DNA of 40,770 nt from Escherichia phage mellemsur: the sequence record MN850570.1; one strand, given 5' to 3'. The notes beneath the pieces are model-generated. The model had not been told where the DNA came from and made no database searches. It saw only the letters and a program-made list of their open reading frames with translations. Within the stretch, counting starts at the first letter, position 1. The number at the start of each line of letters is the position of its first letter. Both the position numbers and the translations under genes were made by a program. Below, piece after piece: positions 3,662-39,902 of this stretch.

Positions 3662-3691
3662 ATTACAGCACATAACCAAAACAGTTTGCAA
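3662..3691 (-). promoter_or_regulatory. sigma70-like early promoter (TTGCAA-N18-TGTAAT on minus strand)
   Basis: plus-strand attaca 3662-3667 and ttgcaa 3686-3691, 18-nt spacer. Confidence 0.4.
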
Positions 3692-3712
3692 GTATTATTT
3701 TCAAGAAAAGTG

Positions 3713-3731
3713 ATAAGTTACTGTAATCATT
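3713..3731. repeat. direct repeat copy 1 (ataagttactgtaatcatt) in AT-rich spacer
   Basis: 19/19 identity with 3792-3810; flanks also similar (gagatta / agataatta). Confidence 0.6.
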
Positions 3732-3791
3732 GAGATTAAAGTTTGATTGGATAATCACAACACTGGATAGAATACCGTTATCAGATAGGTC

Positions 3792-3810
3792 ATAAGTTAC
3801 TGTAATCATT
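3792..3810. repeat. direct repeat copy 2 (ataagttactgtaatcatt)
   Basis: identical to 3713-3731, about 79 bp apart. Confidence 0.6.
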
Positions 3811-3818
3811 AGATAATT

Positions 3819-3850
3819 ATGAAAGTGTCTATAGTGATATAGTATCGCTA
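3819..3850 (-). promoter_or_regulatory. conserved element copy B (minus strand reads tagcgatactatatcactatagacactttcat)
   Basis: 21-nt core tatcactatagacactttcat identical to 25712-25732 (there on plus strand); contains CACTATAGA, the core shared with T7/SP6-type promoters. Confidence 0.4.
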
Positions 3851-4320
3851 GATACGCAGAGCGAGCGCGGCGCAGCCGAAACAAGCGAGCGCCGAACGGA
3901 TGACGGATGGCAGACCGTAGGACTGACAGACGGCAGACAGTGAAGGCAGTAGGACAGTAACAGCAGGTAGCAGAGCATGACGCGCAGAGCTGGCAGGCGC
4001 AGACAGTAGACCGGCACACCACACAGCAGGACGGCAGCACCACGCCGCACACCGCTACACACCAGCACCACACAGCACCACGAAAAGAGACAGATACCCG
4101 CACGACCGAGCGCAGCACGCAGCACCGCACAGCCAGCGCAGAGCGTCCCCATAGGACAGCACCGCACAGCACAGCCAGCAGGACAGCGCACAGCACGTCA
4201 CACGGCAGACGATGAAACGCGACACGCACGAGCTATACCGCACGCAGGCAATCCTCTTGACGCGCCGCGCAGCGCACGCGAGCAAATATCGCGCACGTCG
4301 CGAGGCTAATCCGCGCACAC
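3851..4320. repeat. T-depleted (plus strand) degenerate short-repeat tract, presumed genome terminus / terminal-repeat region
   Basis: Manual count roughly 29 T in about 470 nt; recurring CAGCAC/CACAGCA/GACAGC units; lies between last late gene and early promoters. Confidence 0.65.
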
Positions 4321-4384
4321 GTCATGGGGGTACGCGCGGTCATTTGGGTCGAGGGAGGGCCAAGCATAAACGTGCAATTTTCAA

Positions 4385-4406
4385 GCCGGGGTATTGCACC
4401 CACGGC
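4385..4406 (-). terminator. possible hairpin downstream of endolysin gene
   Basis: imperfect GC stem gccgggg...ccacggc; A/U-rich but not U-run tail; weak. Confidence 0.2.
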
Positions 4407-4435
4407 CTGTTCATTGCCTCAGCTTTTGGATACCC

Positions 4436-4972
4436 CTACAGCGTCGCACAGTAAGCGCTACAGCGTTTTGCACGAGCAACCAAGGCATCCCTATAGCGAA
4501 CCACTGTCGGGGCTGTAGAAGCCTTTAGGAACGCAATACGAAGGTCACAGATGGCTGCTGCTGCGGAGTGAGGTTCCAGACGTTTGGCTGCTGCCACGGT
4601 AGCAGGGCCAATAACCCCGTCTTGTGCAACGCCGCATACCCGCTGTAGAGCTTTCGCCGCACGGGAGACACCGGAGTTGACACCGTAGTCAAACACGGCA
4701 CATGCAATCGCAGGGTGAAGCTCGTCACCTCGGATGGGGGCGTAGTAATCCCGTCGATAGATTGCTTCGGCTTGTGCTTTGGTGAGGTCTTTGATAGGCA
4801 CGCAAATAGTACCGCCAAGCCCAGTAGGGACACCACAAGCTCGGCCATCCAGTTTGCCATCACGAGCGTCGCTAATTCCATGATTCGTTTCCCCTCCGGT
4901 ATCGCCGGGCAGCTTGGTGTAACCACCTTCTGCCAGCCCGGTGAACCGCATACAGATTTCAAAGTTAGTCAT
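4436..4972 (-). CDS. endolysin, GH108-type N-acetylmuramidase with C-terminal peptidoglycan-binding-like domain
   Basis: N-terminal EGGY...D-x-GG-x-T-x-x-GI motif typical of GH108; no signal/SAR sequence; ATGA overlap with upstream gene. Confidence 0.75.
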   Translation of the reverse strand: MTNFEICMRFTGLAEGGYTKLPGDTGGETNHGISDARDGKLDGRACGVPTGLGGTICVPIKDLTKAQAEAIYRRDYYAPIRGDELHPAIACAVFDYGVNSGVSRAAKALQRVCGVAQDGVIGPATVAAAKRLEPHSAAAAICDLRIAFLKASTAPTVVRYRDALVARAKRCSAYCATL

Positions 4973-5355
4973 TACATCCCCAGTAGTGTAGTGATGAAGG
5001 CTTGCAGTGAGCTTAAGTCACCAGCCTTGATTGCTAAGTAGATACCGCTACACAGGGATGCAGTTAAGAGACACCATTTGACAGCGTGAGCCGCCGCCGT
5101 AAACAACTTACCGATATGGCTCATAGTCTTTTGAATGTCCTGAATTTGCTCAACCACAAGGAGCTGCTGTTGAACCGTCTGCCAGCGGAGGTCGTTCTCA
5201 GCCAGCTTGGAAATCATTGCAGCATCGCCCTTTTCAAGAGTGGCGATTTGTACCTCGTGCTTGTCAAGTCGAAGTTCTACGGTCTGCATACGAGCCTCCA
5301 CTGCACCCATACGCGAGTGGATGTTAGGAGATGGCTCCTTCTTTGCTTCCGTCAT
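4972..5355 (-). CDS. lysis-associated membrane protein, putative holin (alternative start at 5289)
   Basis: Coiled-coil-like N-terminus plus single C-terminal TMD (AVKWCLLTASLCSGIYLAI); immediately upstream of endolysin; GGAGG Shine-Dalgarno before internal ATG at 5289. Confidence 0.35.
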   Translation of the reverse strand: MTEAKKEPSPNIHSRMGAVEARMQTVELRLDKHEVQIATLEKGDAAMISKLAENDLRWQTVQQQLLVVEQIQDIQKTMSHIGKLFTAAAHAVKWCLLTASLCSGIYLAIKAGDLSSLQAFITTLLGM

Positions 5356-5812
5356 CTTTCACTTTCCTTTTCCACGGAGATGGTACAAACCACATGACTA
5401 AACCAAGGATACACGTAAGGCCCATGCCGAAAGCCCATAGGAGGCTGCGTGGGTCGCTCTGAGAGACGATAACTGTGCGAGCCTGTACGTTTCCTTGGGT
5501 CATTTGCGACCCCTGCTTAGAAGCGTTTACAGAGCCTCCTGAGACGTCCTTGATGGATGTGCCATTCGAACCCTGCTTAGCGGTATCCACTTTCGCGTTG
5601 CCAGATACGTCACCGACTTCGGTTTCATCGGACTGTTTCGCAGTCACACCGATACCTTGCTTCGTATTTTCTGCACCTACCTGAGCCGTCAGTTCCGGCT
5701 TGTTGGGAGATACAGCCGAAGTTACAGCAGACAGTGCGCTAGTTGCGGAGCAGCCCGTCAGAGTCAGCGACGCTGATAGGACTGCCCCGGCCATTAGCCG
5801 AGACAGTTTCAT
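5324..5812 (-). CDS. outer-membrane lipoprotein with C-terminal transmembrane anchor, candidate unimolecular spanin
   Basis: Signal peptide with lipobox LTGC; Ser/Thr/Lys-rich region with KQG repeats; C-terminal TMD LLWAFGMGLTCILGLVMWFV and basic tail; adjacent to holin-like gene and endolysin. Confidence 0.5.
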   Translation of the reverse strand: MKLSRLMAGAVLSASLTLTGCSATSALSAVTSAVSPNKPELTAQVGAENTKQGIGVTAKQSDETEVGDVSGNAKVDTAKQGSNGTSIKDVSGGSVNASKQGSQMTQGNVQARTVIVSQSDPRSLLWAFGMGLTCILGLVMWFVPSPWKRKVKDDGSKEGAIS

Positions 5813-5822
5813 GAGATACCCC

Positions 5823-6017
5823 TTACGCTGCGGCGTTCGTCAGGTTAGTGAGCGCCGTTTGAACACGGGTCACGAACTCTTGGTAATACGCCACCAGCTC
5901 AGTGTTGGTGGTATCGAAGAAGTAGTCTTCCGTCCAAACGTTCAGATACTTGGCCGCCATATTACAGGCTGCCACGAACTCCGCACGTTCAGCAGCGGTA
6001 GAGTCAACAAGTGCCAT
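5823..6017 (-). CDS. hypothetical protein
   Basis: 64-aa ORF between post-terminase gene and lysis cassette. Confidence 0.45.
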   Translation of the reverse strand: MALVDSTAAERAEFVAACNMAAKYLNVWTEDYFFDTTNTELVAYYQEFVTRVQTALTNLTNAAA

Positions 6018-6028
6018 AAAGATTCTCC

Positions 6029-6709
6029 TTAAGAGAGTGCGATGCCAGTGATTACACCACTAGCGACAGTGAAGGTAACAGTATCCACGTAGGTGCCAGT
6101 TACCGGGATAGCCAGTGCATCACCGTTATCCACCATGGCCACAGTAGCGGCGAGGTTAAAGCCAGTGAGGGCACCGTTGCTTGCCACGAGAGCAGTGGCG
6201 TTATGAGCGTCAGCACCAGCAGAGTTACGGATGGAGTAAGTCGAACCGTTAAGCACTGCATCGGCGTTAGCTGGGAGCCGCACATTGCTCAGCAGGCCGT
6301 CAGCTACACGGGCGGTGGCAGTGGTGATGCCGAGGATAGAGCCGTCGAAGCGACGAATCTCAGTTGAGTCAGTGTGGTCTACCAGTGCTGCGGTAGACAG
6401 GACGAGCTGTACGTTATCCAGCGTGGTGCCAGTAACGTTGGCTGTGGCATTGTGCGCGTCGTTACCTGCGGAGTTGACCACAGATACAGTAGCGCCGTCA
6501 GCCAGCAGAGCGGAACCTTCCGGCGTACCAGCATAGCCAGCCGCCTCAAGTGCCGCCACCAGATTGGTGATAGCCGTTTCAATATCAGCAGCCTGAGCTG
6601 CCGTCACTGTACGGGTATCATTGATAAAGCGTTGAGTCACATTAGCTGCGATACCGCAGCGATAGCCAAGCTCATAACGCTGTGCATCAGTGATGGTGAT
6701 GATGGACAT
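6029..6709 (-). CDS. hypothetical protein with internal tandem duplication (possible virion-associated)
   Basis: 226 aa, Ala/Thr/Gly/Asn/Val-rich; NSAGNDAHNATANVTG and NSAGADAHNATALVAS repeat units; start overlaps terminase stop. Confidence 0.55.
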   Translation of the reverse strand: MSIITITDAQRYELGYRCGIAANVTQRFINDTRTVTAAQAADIETAITNLVAALEAAGYAGTPEGSALLADGATVSVVNSAGNDAHNATANVTGTTLDNVQLVLSTAALVDHTDSTEIRRFDGSILGITTATARVADGLLSNVRLPANADAVLNGSTYSIRNSAGADAHNATALVASNGALTGFNLAATVAMVDNGDALAIPVTGTYVDTVTFTVASGVITGIALS

Positions 6710-8469
6710 TATTTGATTCTCCGTCGCGTGCCGCGCACAGGTTTATGGCTACGCCACTTCGAGTCATCGTAACCCATTGGGTTGGCAAGGAACTCGCGTG
6801 CGGCAGCCGTCTCGCGCTTGGCAGCTTCTTCATGTTCGTCCTGCTGTAGCACCTCAGCGTGCAGGTACACGGCAGCAGATAGGGTTTCGATACGGTCATC
6901 GTGTGGGATGGATTGACGGTCTTGTGTCAGGTTCTGGAGCTGCCAGAACAGGCTGAACTCTCGACCACCGTTGTTCATCCCGCGACACAGCCGCAGGTCT
7001 TCTTCAACAACGCACCAGTGTACGACGACACGGTGACGCTGCATGATTGGGCCAAGGCGGTTGATGATACGCACCTCTTTCTGGCCGGACGAGTACACGC
7101 CTTCACAGCCAATGGCCAAGCTCTGGCGCTTAATCTCACCTCGGTACATGTTGGTCACGGTGCCGTGGCCCATGTTATCCTCAATGACCAGCCGTTTAAC
7201 CCCGGTTTCAGCGAGCCACTCTACCGCCGCCTTGATGTTTTCCTCCGTCTGGCCGCCGTGGTAGACGTGCATACCGATGACGTGGATAAACGGGCCGACA
7301 GAAGCGGTGGCAATGATAACTGATTCGTCCGACCCACCACCAGCAGGGTCAAGAAACGCCGAGGTATTTTCGAATGGTACATAAGTGTCCGAGAAATCAG
7401 CAGCCAAGAATAGCTGAGCACGAGCCAGTGGGAAATCCAGTGGCAGCTCGGCGGCATGGCGCGGGTGGTTCGACCAATGCAGAACCTCCGGCGCGGACTG
7501 CGTTGAGCCGTGGAAGAAGATTAAGTCTTTGAGATGTAACGTTTGTTTGAGCGCATCCGACAGCGACGTGTCCAGCATGAACTGCAACTGGAAGCCTGCC
7601 TGCTGGTAGTCTCGTTCGTTCTGCAACTGCTTTTCTTCGGAGTAGCGTTGCGGGTCAGTCTGTGCGCCACGGTTCCCAAGGATACCGTGTCCGGTACGCA
7701 GCTCAGGGTGGCCTTCCATCTTCTGCTTAATCCACGGGGCCAGACAGCCGCCGTAGCGTTCTTCTTCCTCAACCGTTGGGAAACGACCGGGCCAGATGCG
7801 AACGTCGAAGCCACGCTGTGGGAGCGTGTTGTAGATGGAGTCTTGAGTCTGTGGCGTGCCGAGGTACAGAATCTCTGCACCATCGTTGGCGATAGCCGCG
7901 AACTCTTTGGTCAGGGTGTTGATACGGGCGCGGTTGGCAGGAGAGCTACCGTTACTGGTAGTCTCCACGTCATCGGCAATCAACAGCGATACGTGGTTCC
8001 CCTGTAGCTGGCCGAAGATACCGACCGCTTTTACAGAGGGCTGTTTGTCAGGGATACGGAACGCGTGATGCACGTCGAAGCCGTCAGTAAATGACGTACG
8101 TGCGCCAGCGCGAGTCTCAGGCTTGAGCCATTCCAGACGTTCCCACTGCATGATAGCCGACACGATAGCGTGCGACAGCGTACCAGCATAGTCGTCGGAA
8201 CCGGACACAAGCAGGACAGTGGCGTTCGGCATCTGCACAAATTCGTACAGAGCGCGAGCAATACCGATGGTGGACTTTGCCTCACCACGCTGCGCCATGA
8301 CGCACTTGTTCTTGAGCGTCCTGTCGGCCATGTAGCGGCCAATGTCGAGCTGCATTTCAGTGAGGTCAAAGCCCAGCCATGCGAAGTAGTCATGCAGGAA
8401 CAGCGGGAAGTTGTTCTCGTAGTGGGCGCGAACGATTCCTGCCATCACCATGCGGCGTTGTAAATCCAT
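6709..8469 (-). CDS. terminase large subunit
   Basis: 586 aa (same length class as T7 gp19); position after tailspike and small ORF as in T7-like late operon. Confidence 0.75.
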   Translation of the reverse strand: MDLQRRMVMAGIVRAHYENNFPLFLHDYFAWLGFDLTEMQLDIGRYMADRTLKNKCVMAQRGEAKSTIGIARALYEFVQMPNATVLLVSGSDDYAGTLSHAIVSAIMQWERLEWLKPETRAGARTSFTDGFDVHHAFRIPDKQPSVKAVGIFGQLQGNHVSLLIADDVETTSNGSSPANRARINTLTKEFAAIANDGAEILYLGTPQTQDSIYNTLPQRGFDVRIWPGRFPTVEEEERYGGCLAPWIKQKMEGHPELRTGHGILGNRGAQTDPQRYSEEKQLQNERDYQQAGFQLQFMLDTSLSDALKQTLHLKDLIFFHGSTQSAPEVLHWSNHPRHAAELPLDFPLARAQLFLAADFSDTYVPFENTSAFLDPAGGGSDESVIIATASVGPFIHVIGMHVYHGGQTEENIKAAVEWLAETGVKRLVIEDNMGHGTVTNMYRGEIKRQSLAIGCEGVYSSGQKEVRIINRLGPIMQRHRVVVHWCVVEEDLRLCRGMNNGGREFSLFWQLQNLTQDRQSIPHDDRIETLSAAVYLHAEVLQQDEHEEAAKRETAAAREFLANPMGYDDSKWRSHKPVRGTRRRIK

Positions 8470-28518: not shown

Positions 28519-28695
28519 CTACGCAAGACAGGCAAACAGAATAGCAGGGATGACAGCCAAGAATACCCACAGGATAAAGCCTGCTGCACCAGACCTGTCA
28601 ACGTGTGTCTTGTTGTACTGGTCGCACGCAGCCAGACAGACAACAGAGAACAGGGCAAACCATACCACAGCTACAATCCAAAGTAAAACACTCAT
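28519..28695 (-). CDS. small membrane protein
   Basis: about 58 aa with two hydrophobic helices; start moved to MSVLLWIV. Confidence 0.4.
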   Translation of the reverse strand: MSVLLWIVAVVWFALFSVVCLAACDQYNKTHVDRSGAAGFILWVFLAVIPAILFACLA

Positions 28696-39268: not shown

Positions 39269-39705
39269 TCGTTATCCCAGTCCGGTATGTACTGAATCTT
39301 CTTCTTCATCTTCACGCTGGCTACAACTTGCAGCACACGGACAGTACCTCCGTTCCGCTCTGCCAAACGTTCAGCTTCGTCACGCGCCTCGCGCTCAGTG
39401 ATGTGCTCAACCTTCGGCGGCGCATTACTGCCTTCGACCAAGCACATGAACCGACCACGCTTCTCTGCTGGCGTGCTGACCAGACTGGTGTTGTCCTCCA
39501 GCCAATCAGATTTGTAGTGGCTGATATCCGGCTGCGCATTGAGGCGCTCACCAATCCAGCTCACGATGTAACGAGTCTCCCCGCTACGTTCCCACGCTCG
39601 GCGGTCAGGGTTAACCCACGCGATGATACCCAGCTTACCTGACCGGGTGCCAGTGCCATCGTCGCCTACGATTTCATCCCCGACTTTATACTTTGGCTTC
39701 ACCAT
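39265..39705 (-). CDS. hypothetical protein
   Basis: 146-aa ORF; N-terminal KVGDEIV segment. Confidence 0.45.
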   Translation of the reverse strand: MVKPKYKVGDEIVGDDGTGTRSGKLGIIAWVNPDRRAWERSGETRYIVSWIGERLNAQPDISHYKSDWLEDNTSLVSTPAEKRGRFMCLVEGSNAPPKVEHITEREARDEAERLAERNGGTVRVLQVVASVKMKKKIQYIPDWDNE

Positions 39706-39902
39706 TTAATCCACCTCCGGCTCTGGCCTACACTCAGGCTCAACTGCATCAGACCCCAGCCCACCAGCATACCGAGCAGCGTGCCCAGTGTTGAAGTGGC
39801 TGACTCACCGACAGCAGGGATAAGCACCAGTGATGCAAGACCTACCCACAATGCTCCCCAAATAATAACCAGAAGTAGGAACAACAATATTACTTTGAAC
39901 AT
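39699..39902 (-). CDS. small membrane protein
   Basis: 67 aa, two hydrophobic helices; GAGGTG Shine-Dalgarno. Confidence 0.5.
   Translation of the reverse strand: MFKVILLFLLLVIIWGALWVGLASLVLIPAVGESATSTLGTLLGMLVGWGLMQLSLSVGQSRRWIKW

Follow-up and report, generated by a model that had tools for sequence, protein, structure and literature searches.

Escherichia phage mellemsur carries a soluble endolysin, and its lysis locus raises the question of which protein lets this enzyme through the inner membrane. We addressed it in the sequence record MN850570.1, a stretch of 40,770 nt that was analyzed at its full length and is called the window below; genes and signals in the window lie on the minus strand unless another strand is named. 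The candidate is an open reading frame (ORF) of 127 aa at 4972..5355, which starts with ATG in the ORF list. It lies between the gene of a unimolecular spanin (u-spanin, 5324..5812) and that of a GH108 endolysin (4436..4972). An original prediction, made from the letters of the window, had named this ORF as the likeliest holin, without giving its strand. Our results point the same way. The gene is probably the holin of this phage group, and its product would be a class III-like protein with a tail anchor and a coiled coil in the cytoplasm, made from a gene with a conserved dual start. This is the best-supported reading, owing to the slot of the gene, its linkage to an endolysin in 8/8 lineages, and its resemblance in architecture to gp63 of phage N4.

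The candidate fills the holin slot of its cassette: the order is u-spanin, X, endolysin, and the genes overlap on both sides. With the u-spanin gene, it shares 32 nt (5324–5355), that is, the last 10 spanin codons and the stop, as had been proposed together with the extent of the ORF. The candidate stop and the endolysin ATG have one base in common (TAATG at 4972), through which the endolysin gene is predicted to be translationally coupled to the candidate gene. The endolysin matched PF05838 (E 8.9e-22) and the endolysin family phrog_315. Its N-terminus is not hydrophobic and has no signal or signal-arrest-release (SAR) sequence, in line with the signal-less enzyme described by the original prediction. 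The u-spanin has a signal with the lipobox LTLTGC and a C-terminal transmembrane domain (TMD, residues 125–143), and it matched phrog_1804 ‘Rz-like spanin’ in the PHROG search (6.9e-36). Kongari et al. (2018) assigned the spanins of J8-65 and LIMEzero, two close relatives, to the T1 gp11 u-spanin family.

Bases 4300–6800 of the window are 99.2% identical to Escherichia phage megetsur and match 19 records of the genus Bonnellvirus, which comprises T7-like podoviruses of E. coli, Enterobacter, Kosakonia, Cronobacter, and Pantoea. A holin is annotated neither in any Bonnellvirus record nor in LIMEzero. The Kc261 paper reported only an endolysin, and the supplements of the spanin surveys hold no holin entry for J8-65 or LIMEzero. 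Overall, we found no recognized holin for the Bonnellviruses or the LIMEzero-like phages in database records or the literature.

The candidate protein contains a single hydrophobic segment, for which the best 19-residue Kyte–Doolittle window (residues 91–109) had a marginal mean of 1.58. The AlphaFold2 (AF2) model, built on an 11-sequence alignment, consists of a helix at residues 12–110, a break at 111–113, and a second helix at 114–125. Its mean predicted local distance difference test (pLDDT) score is 84.5, with values above 90 across residues 21–90. The coiled-coil-like N-terminus and the one C-terminal TMD of the original prediction were thus recovered. The conserved N-terminal motif occupies residues 12–22 (5290..5322) and reads IHSRMGAVEAR here and YRRxGGLExxV in distant relatives (alignments A1 and A3). 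It opens a long, presumably cytoplasmic α-helix/coiled-coil domain that extends over residues 12–90 in the AF2 model (5086..5322) and for which Pfam gave only sub-threshold matches of the coiled-coil type. Within this domain, an XhlA-like motif, ExRMxxVExRxDKHExQI, is found at residues 20–37. The juxtamembrane segment LxVVEQIQDIQKTMxxIGK (residues 65–83; 5107..5163) is the most conserved part, with invariant columns in alignments A1 and A2. The membrane anchor found in the Kyte–Doolittle scan, K-[WCLLTASLCSGIYLAI]-K (residues 93–110; 5026..5079), has a 16-residue hydrophobic core between basic residues and a small-residue stripe formed by S100, G104, and A108. A Gly112–Asp113 turn and an amphipathic C-terminal helix follow in the AF2 model (residues 111–127; 4975..5025), where G112 and D113 are invariant in alignment A3. 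This end of the chain is presumed to be periplasmic or interfacial; its sequence, KAGDLSSLQAFITTLLGM, is amphipathic with only one Lys and one Asp.

The charges around the anchor suggest its orientation. Three Lys residues stand in the 18 residues before it and the net charge after it is 0; therefore, N-in is favored, and the positive-inside rule predicts an N-in/C-out topology. In size and TMD number, 127 aa with one TMD-like segment, the protein is in keeping with a holin. The statement that it does not fit the classical holin classes could not be upheld: a single TMD with N-in/C-out orientation corresponds to class III by topology, and N4 gp63 (PMC12642591) and XhlA/SPP1 gp24.1 (PMC6316719) precede it. 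The claim of an unprecedented topology is outdated.

GenBank records call the candidate hypothetical, and their choice of start varies between two ATGs. Its PHROG family is phrog_35530 ‘unknown function’ (2.5e-57), the profile of which begins at Met23; apart from it, no above-threshold match was obtained in Pfam, NCBIfam, or PHROGs. Foldseek of the AF2 model against viral structures gave no match at E ≤ 0.001, which is expected because the model is a single long helix. No match was found in the plasmid collection searched. The gene is conserved in 21 phage records, and the only cultured phages that carry it are the Bonnellviruses and Pantoea phage LIMEzero (Waewaevirus, 54% identity). A profile search of 1.84 billion representative proteins added about 10 full-length relatives with 20–30% identity. 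The family has a common layout: the N-terminal motif, the long helix, VVEQIQDIQKTMxxIGK, a 16-residue core flanked by Lys/Arg, the invariant Gly-Asp, and the amphipathic tail. The basic-flanked core of 16 residues is kept family-wide and also in N4 gp63. One contig, L013, was discarded as a relative. It encodes an N-terminal-TMD protein with a RIGAVEARMQSLE motif beside a reverse-transcriptase-like ORF, and its match to the motif was judged to be unrelated. The ratio of nonsynonymous to synonymous substitution (dN/dS) for codons 23–127 was 0.08–0.10 against relatives whose synonymous sites are near saturation. These values mark the candidate ORF as a real gene under strong purifying selection and not a chance ORF.

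The linkage to endolysins was followed over eight lineages, namely Bonnellvirus, Waewaevirus, and six metagenomic ones (L014, L017, L020, L025, L026, and L027), the latter all T7-like contigs with homologues 20–30% identical. In each of the eight, the homologue directly precedes the endolysin gene, and the two overlap or lie no more than 10 nt apart. The enzyme is of the GH108 type in Bonnellvirus and Waewaevirus and a PF00959 T4-type lysozyme in the six metagenomic lineages. The constant partner is therefore an endolysin of either catalytic family, which is the classic holin pattern. The endolysins of these lineages lack a hydrophobic N-terminus, so a hole-former is needed. The order u-spanin, X, endolysin is retained in L025 and L026, and the other four metagenomic lineages have no adjacent spanin. 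No other membrane ORF was found in the metagenomic cassettes examined, and Bonnellvirus and LIMEzero have, u-spanin aside, no further membrane protein in common besides the candidate. By association, the endolysin linkage supports the putative holin role.

The start of the gene required closer inspection, as the original prediction had pointed to an internal ATG at 5289 behind GGAGG. Both elements are there. The codon is Met23 (ATG 5289–5287), and its GGAGG Shine–Dalgarno sequence (5295..5299, reading 5299–5295) is separated from it by a 5-nt spacer. The ATG of Met1, at 5355, is preceded at a distance of 9 nt by a weak AAGGA Shine–Dalgarno-like element (5365..5369) within the u-spanin coding region; loci of the Waewaevirus clade have an equivalent TAAGGG element before the first ATG. 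Initiation at Met23, which several database entries chose as the start, would yield a putative short isoform of 105 aa (4972..5289) without the conserved N-terminal motif. All Bonnellvirus and Waewaevirus loci possess both Met1 with an element of the AAGGA/AAGGG type and Met23 with GGAGG at 5 nt. GGAGG is invariant in eight aligned loci from the two genera, in that Glu20 is always encoded by GAG and the codon before it always ends in G. Synonymous diversity was 0.19 for codons 12–23, which lie outside the spanin overlap, versus 0.36–0.48 for the rest of the gene. The proposal of two start sites thus gains comparative support, since both starts and their Shine–Dalgarno sequences are kept in two genera and synonymous variation is suppressed. 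Met16 was rejected as a start, having no Shine–Dalgarno sequence and being Ile in L012.

The long form can be considered real on three grounds: residues 12–22 are conserved family-wide, dN/dS for codons 12–22 was 0–0.15, and in distant relatives the only start, which has a strong Shine–Dalgarno sequence, lies upstream of the N-terminal motif. The distance from the spanin stop to the Met23 ATG is 34 nt in both genera, and the position of GGAGG/Met23 at this distance past the stop makes termination–reinitiation coupling plausible. The short form could be made in this way, with the long form needing independent initiation inside the spanin gene. Translation from Met23 and an antiholin relation between the two forms are predicted from these features. 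RNAalifold also proposed a 9-bp hairpin at 5287..5313 (arms 5313–5305 and 5295–5287, with GGAG in the loop), which would pair the Met23 AUG and the last G of GGAGG. In the consensus of eight loci, the nine pairs are nearly invariant, and the changes are one-sided only. The single-sequence fold of the region was no better than that of shuffles (z −0.6), and the case for a hairpin at the internal start is weak.

From these elements, the following mechanism can be proposed. The candidate would be anchored in the inner membrane by its C-terminal segment, and its cytoplasmic helix of about 90 residues would oligomerize as a coiled coil. Small and polar residues abound in the single short TMD, and such TMDs would pack into a lethal membrane lesion after build-up during late expression. 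Through the lesion, the signal-less GH108 endolysin would reach the murein, after which the u-spanin would disrupt the outer membrane. Two products are probable, the full-length one from Met1 and one from Met23 that is 22 residues shorter, and their ratio would tune the timing of lysis in holin/antiholin fashion. Hole formation, the size of the hole, and which isoform inhibits which are what we infer here.

Several observations weigh against a holin that acts in this manner. Two look-alikes have been characterized. N4 gp63, of 110 aa, was shown experimentally to be a pinholin; it is described as ‘C-terminally anchored’, with a cytoplasmic N-terminal helical domain and class III N-in/C-out topology (bioRxiv 10.1101/2025.11.12.688109 = PMC12642591). 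XhlA and SPP1 gp24.1 are likewise C-terminally anchored helical lysis proteins (PMC6316719). They are harmless alone and lethal with XhlB or gp26, and SPP1 transcribes the gene of the partner early, that of gp24.1 late. Both types work with a second protein that has two TMDs, and neither releases a soluble endolysin alone. Because both closest precedents act with a two-TMD partner, the candidate may be a co-holin or a regulator; these partners are the main reason for caution. Homology to gp63 or XhlA/gp24.1 is no more than suggestive. A hidden Markov model (HMM) of the gp63 family ranked generic coiled-coil decoys above members of the candidate family, and the XhlA score of the candidate was 13.0 bits (E 0.12) versus a gathering score of 34.7 bits. 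In distant relatives, the position of Met23 is Val or Leu without a Shine–Dalgarno sequence; nor is an internal Met kept in the gp63 family (2/119 sequences). The hairpin at 5287–5313 showed no compensatory change across the eight loci. The highly charged hydrophilic C-terminal tail typical of holins is not present. The hydrophobic core has only 16 residues with the marginal value given above, and the relatives L014 and L017 fall below the cut-off of 1.5. Finally, Bonnellvirus has two other conserved membrane ORFs.

These ORFs came from a hydrophobicity scan of all ORFs of the window, LF82-23, and LIMEzero, in which another holin was sought. No canonical holin was found in this set, but rival membrane ORFs were recorded. 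It had been stated that the candidate is the only membrane protein adjacent to the endolysin; this overlooked the u-spanin with its lipobox and C-terminal TMD, and a TMD-bearing out-of-frame ORF in the endolysin gene itself. The latter, a rival or partner candidate of 118 aa with one N-terminal TMD, lies within the endolysin gene, in its +1 frame, at 4525..4881 (ATG 4881; open 4525–4962). In 10/11 loci from both genera, including all Bonnellvirus loci, its frame is open for 137–153 of 176–179 codons, and in 10/11 loci it is longer than in synonymous-codon shuffles (p 0.000–0.05). In LIMEzero, the frame is interrupted, and only 100 of its codons are open (p 0.052). Compared with shuffles, the TMD of the embedded ORF has a raised hydrophobicity in Bonnellvirus only, and the synonymous diversity of the endolysin frame is modestly lower inside the embedded ORF (0.22–0.26 vs. 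0.37). We keep the ORF as a lead: it may be a gene for lysis, or codon usage may have given rise to it as a by-product. For embedded holin genes, S. aureus phage 187 offers a precedent.

The second rival or partner candidate is a membrane protein of 67 aa (39699..39902) at the end of the early/middle region, just upstream of the primase module. Its N-terminus forms a long, very hydrophobic stretch; a second such stretch is weaker, and the C-terminus, RRWIKW, is basic. The protein was found in 19/19 Bonnellvirus records with 40–100% identity, and had no homologue in LIMEzero and no family assignment. A further ORF of 58 aa with two strong TMDs (28522–28695) lies between a 192/214-aa gene and a Q-like gene, upstream of the RNA polymerase gene, and is ATGA-coupled to the stop of the gene before it. 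As a general holin, the 58-aa ORF was rejected: it is part of a ~180-nt insert that neither LF82-23, a member of the same genus, nor LIMEzero has. In appearance, it is an accessory (moron-like) membrane gene. Neither the 67-aa nor the 58-aa ORF showed a relation to gp62, the two-TMD neighbor of N4 gp63, and the 67-aa protein showed none to gp26.

With these ORFs in hand, we weighed other roles for the candidate. As a co-holin of the XhlA/gp24.1 or N4 gp63 type, it would be one half of a two-component lesion system and would need a membrane protein from another locus to release the soluble endolysin. This partner could be the early 67-aa protein or the product of the embedded ORF, and, as in SPP1, the late candidate could then set the time of lysis for an early partner. 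The layout that XhlA and gp24.1 have in common with the candidate, their partner-dependent lethality, the order of expression in SPP1, and a motif-level similarity to gp24.1 (hhalign 70% over 27 columns) all agree with such a role, as do the conservation of the 67-aa protein throughout the Bonnellvirus records and the length and, in Bonnellvirus, the hydrophobicity of the embedded ORF. However, a two-TMD gene was present in 0/8 cassettes, and each of the conceivable partners has its own difficulty. The 67-aa protein is missing from LIMEzero and does not resemble gp62 or gp26. The embedded ORF is broken in LIMEzero, its hydrophobic stretch is lost in the Waewaevirus clade, and its product is much less conserved than the endolysin (identity 44–81% vs. 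66–93%); moreover, the shuffle test flagged 8/98 gene-frames genome-wide and is hence unspecific. A co-holin is the main rival of the holin reading; we regard it as rather unlikely, with some substance left to the idea.

A pure regulator, that is, an antiholin or lysis timer, or a pinholin-like depolarizer would leave the endolysin-releasing hole to an unrecognized protein. N4 gp63 makes pinholes only, a short marginal TMD suits small lesions more than micron-scale holes, and the long conserved cytoplasmic domain and the juxtamembrane segment look regulatory and align with the N4 ‘Receiver domain’. A pinholin would nevertheless be useless to a soluble endolysin, and the family always stands beside soluble endolysins. 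The phages that carry the family also have no other conserved hole-former candidate in common, and we consider this role improbable. Still less probable is a function outside lysis, in which a membrane-anchored coiled-coil protein would serve another late process (assembly, DNA-end handling, or exclusion) and owe its position to inherited T7-like gene order. All lineages are indeed T7-like podoviruses, so that an inherited order is possible, and the matches to lysis families are all sub-threshold. Against this, the endolysin has been swapped between the unrelated families GH108 and PF00959 with adjacency and translational coupling kept, and the flanking genes vary by lineage, the u-spanin being present or absent and a tail fiber or tailspike gene lying downstream. 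The protein is no i-spanin either: its TMD is C-terminal, its N-terminal domain of 90 residues is highly charged and has no export signal, and a u-spanin is already present. The holin reading is retained with these reservations.

A wider extension of the holin reading is doubtful, and we offer it tentatively. The candidate family, N4 gp63, and XhlA/gp24.1 might belong to a single ancient superfamily, the members of which are coiled-coil lysis proteins anchored at the C-terminus, with the Bonnellvirus branch as the first member to act solo. Such a member would combine a marginal 16-residue TMD, a coiled-coil ‘clock’, and holes that pass a folded soluble endolysin with timing by long and short isoforms, the short one being coupled to the u-spanin gene.

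Holins are notoriously diverse, and a new holin family is, for this reason, no large surprise. The interest lies in the apparent solo action with soluble endolysins, the possible link to XhlA and N4 gp63, and the unusual dual start. The assignment of phrog_35530 as a holin candidate fills an annotation gap in about 20 phages in culture and a number of metagenomic T7-like ones. If the candidate acts alone, a soluble endolysin can be freed by a tail-anchored protein that has a single short TMD along with a large cytoplasmic coiled coil; the look-alikes, in contrast, make pinholes only (N4 gp63) or need a partner (XhlA/gp24.1). A dual start of 22 residues just past the spanin stop would be a solution to holin timing unlike that of lambda S105/S107. 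The proposal is readily testable, as E. coli K-12 strains serve as hosts and lambda and phage 21 complementation tools exist.

The remaining genes of the cassette region are also on the minus strand, in the order of transcription TerL, a 226-aa ORF, a 64-aa ORF, u-spanin, candidate, and endolysin. TerL (6709–8469), identified from the ORF list and family searches, is directly followed by the 226-aa ORF (6029–6709), and the 64-aa ORF (5823–6017) lies between the latter and the u-spanin gene. The gene after TerL ranges from 40 to 226 aa across lineages (6029–6709 in the window, 4694–4987 in L014, 2612–2734 in L017, and ORF51 in LIMEzero). Its N-terminus, MSxITxLTxAQ..., and its C-terminus, ...ITGIALS, are kept across lineages, with a variable or dispensable middle, and the C-terminus matches a PHROG with the annotation ‘virion structural protein’. 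Three Waewaevirus-like contigs carry, right behind the endolysin gene, an 88-aa ORF with an N-terminal signal-anchor-like hydrophobic segment (L008 3895–4161, L009 2773–3039, and L011 3584–3850); LIMEzero itself has the soluble ORF56 at this place. In the window, the + strand is strongly enriched in C and A over the non-coding stretch 3663–4300, which separates the endolysin gene from the early genes. This stretch contains degenerate repeats of the CACCACACAG type at 4017–4081 and gives rise to long spurious Cys/Val-rich ORFs on the minus strand. It probably represents the genome end or terminal repeat, in a record that is circularly permuted. A weak hairpin that resembles an intrinsic terminator and has a T-rich tail (4289–4303 on the minus strand) lies about 130 nt past the endolysin stop, and the late transcript may end there. 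Terminator-like sites, this weak hairpin among them, were no more frequent in the scan than in shuffled sequence.

Comparison with known lysis proteins sets the candidate closest to N4 gp63. In hhalign, the probability for gp63 was 66.9% when the single sequence was used and 84.7% (score 36.6) when the two families were compared. The alignment is colinear over 91–92 columns and spans the N-terminal motif to the end of the anchor. All 40 block-shuffled controls, in which the soluble part was shuffled and the TMD kept, scored below 36.6 (19.9 ± 4.4, maximum 31.3). Both proteins are of similar size (110 and 127 aa), have an N-terminal helical cytoplasmic domain, and are encoded in a lysis cassette. 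Both anchors consist of K-W and 16 hydrophobic residues with a glycine/small-residue stripe, followed by a basic residue. Candidate residues 65–83 align with the N4 ‘Receiver domain’, where the rapid-lysis mutations of N4 gp63 cluster, at S62–I72 (PMC12642591). Moreover, gp63 has an alternate start at Met17 (PMC12642591), and at the aligned position both genes have an in-frame AUG after GGAGG and 5 nt (N4 Met17, candidate Met23). The internal Met is confined in the gp63 family to the two relatives counted above, so that the Met17 dual start was rejected as a family feature, whereas that of the candidate is conserved in two genera. The two also differ in their surroundings: gp63 (phrog_5211) serves an SAR endolysin and adjoins the two-TMD gp62, whereas the candidate has a soluble GH108 enzyme and no two-TMD ORF in its cassette. 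The candidate tail is longer (17 vs. 9 aa) and has the invariant Gly-Asp turn. In complementation, gp63 supplied the pinholin function only (PMC12642591). The candidate gave no match to phrog_5211 at E ≤ 0.1, and its relative P0036 matched it over the full length at E 0.059. Since the HMM preferred coiled-coil decoys, phrog_5211 was not matched, and Met17 is not conserved, we see in gp63 the nearest analogue in function and architecture, and a remote homology of the two is no more than possible. In many records of N4-like phages, gp63 homologues are named ‘tail length tape-measure protein’, and in JGI they are named ‘chromosome segregation ATPase’; both names are coiled-coil-driven misannotations of a pinholin.

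The candidate also resembles XhlA and gp24.1 in having an N-terminal coiled coil, a C-terminal transmembrane helix, and a gene in the lysis cassette. XhlA (PF10779) was the Pfam family matched by most members of the candidate family (10/13), in all cases below the gathering score and with a best E of 5.4e-4; the best family member, also sub-threshold, had 21.9 bits (E 2e-4). The PHROG ‘hemolysin’ family phrog_1193 was matched by 7/13 members. No XhlA sequence was found for phi105, and SPP1 gp24.1 served as the XhlA-type comparison sequence. It has the motif ExR(I/M)xx(L/V)ExRxD(K/R)H(D/E)xQI in common with the candidate and also an in-frame dual start. In contrast to XhlA, the candidate has about 40 extra helical residues between motif and anchor. 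XhlA types occur in phages of Gram-positive hosts and always with a canonical holin (XhlB, gp26, Phage_holin_1, or Dp1), which is the case in none of the eight candidate cassettes.

More distant systems resemble the candidate in single features. In KP34-like phages (Drulisvirus), TerL is also followed by a u-spanin of the T1 gp11 family, the annotated single-TMD holin gp55 in the slot of the candidate, and an endolysin. The KP34 holin differs in having 83 aa, a central TMD, a charged C-terminus, and an SAR endolysin; with an hhalign value of 0.2%, it was rejected as a relative. T4 holin T, the class III prototype, likewise combines a single TMD and N-in/C-out topology, which is predicted for the candidate, with a soluble endolysin. 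In T, the cytoplasmic N-terminus is short, and the C-terminal domain is large, lies in the periplasm, and binds the antiholin RI. The proportions of the candidate are inverted, with a large cytoplasmic domain and 17 residues after the TMD, and no search showed sequence similarity between the two. With lambda S105/S107, the candidate has in common two in-frame starts in one gene and an RNA hairpin near the starts, which is only predicted here. The lambda isoforms differ by two residues and act via the topology of TMD1, whereas those of the candidate would differ by 22 cytoplasmic residues that contain a conserved motif. An antiholin mechanism based on such isoforms must therefore differ from that of lambda.

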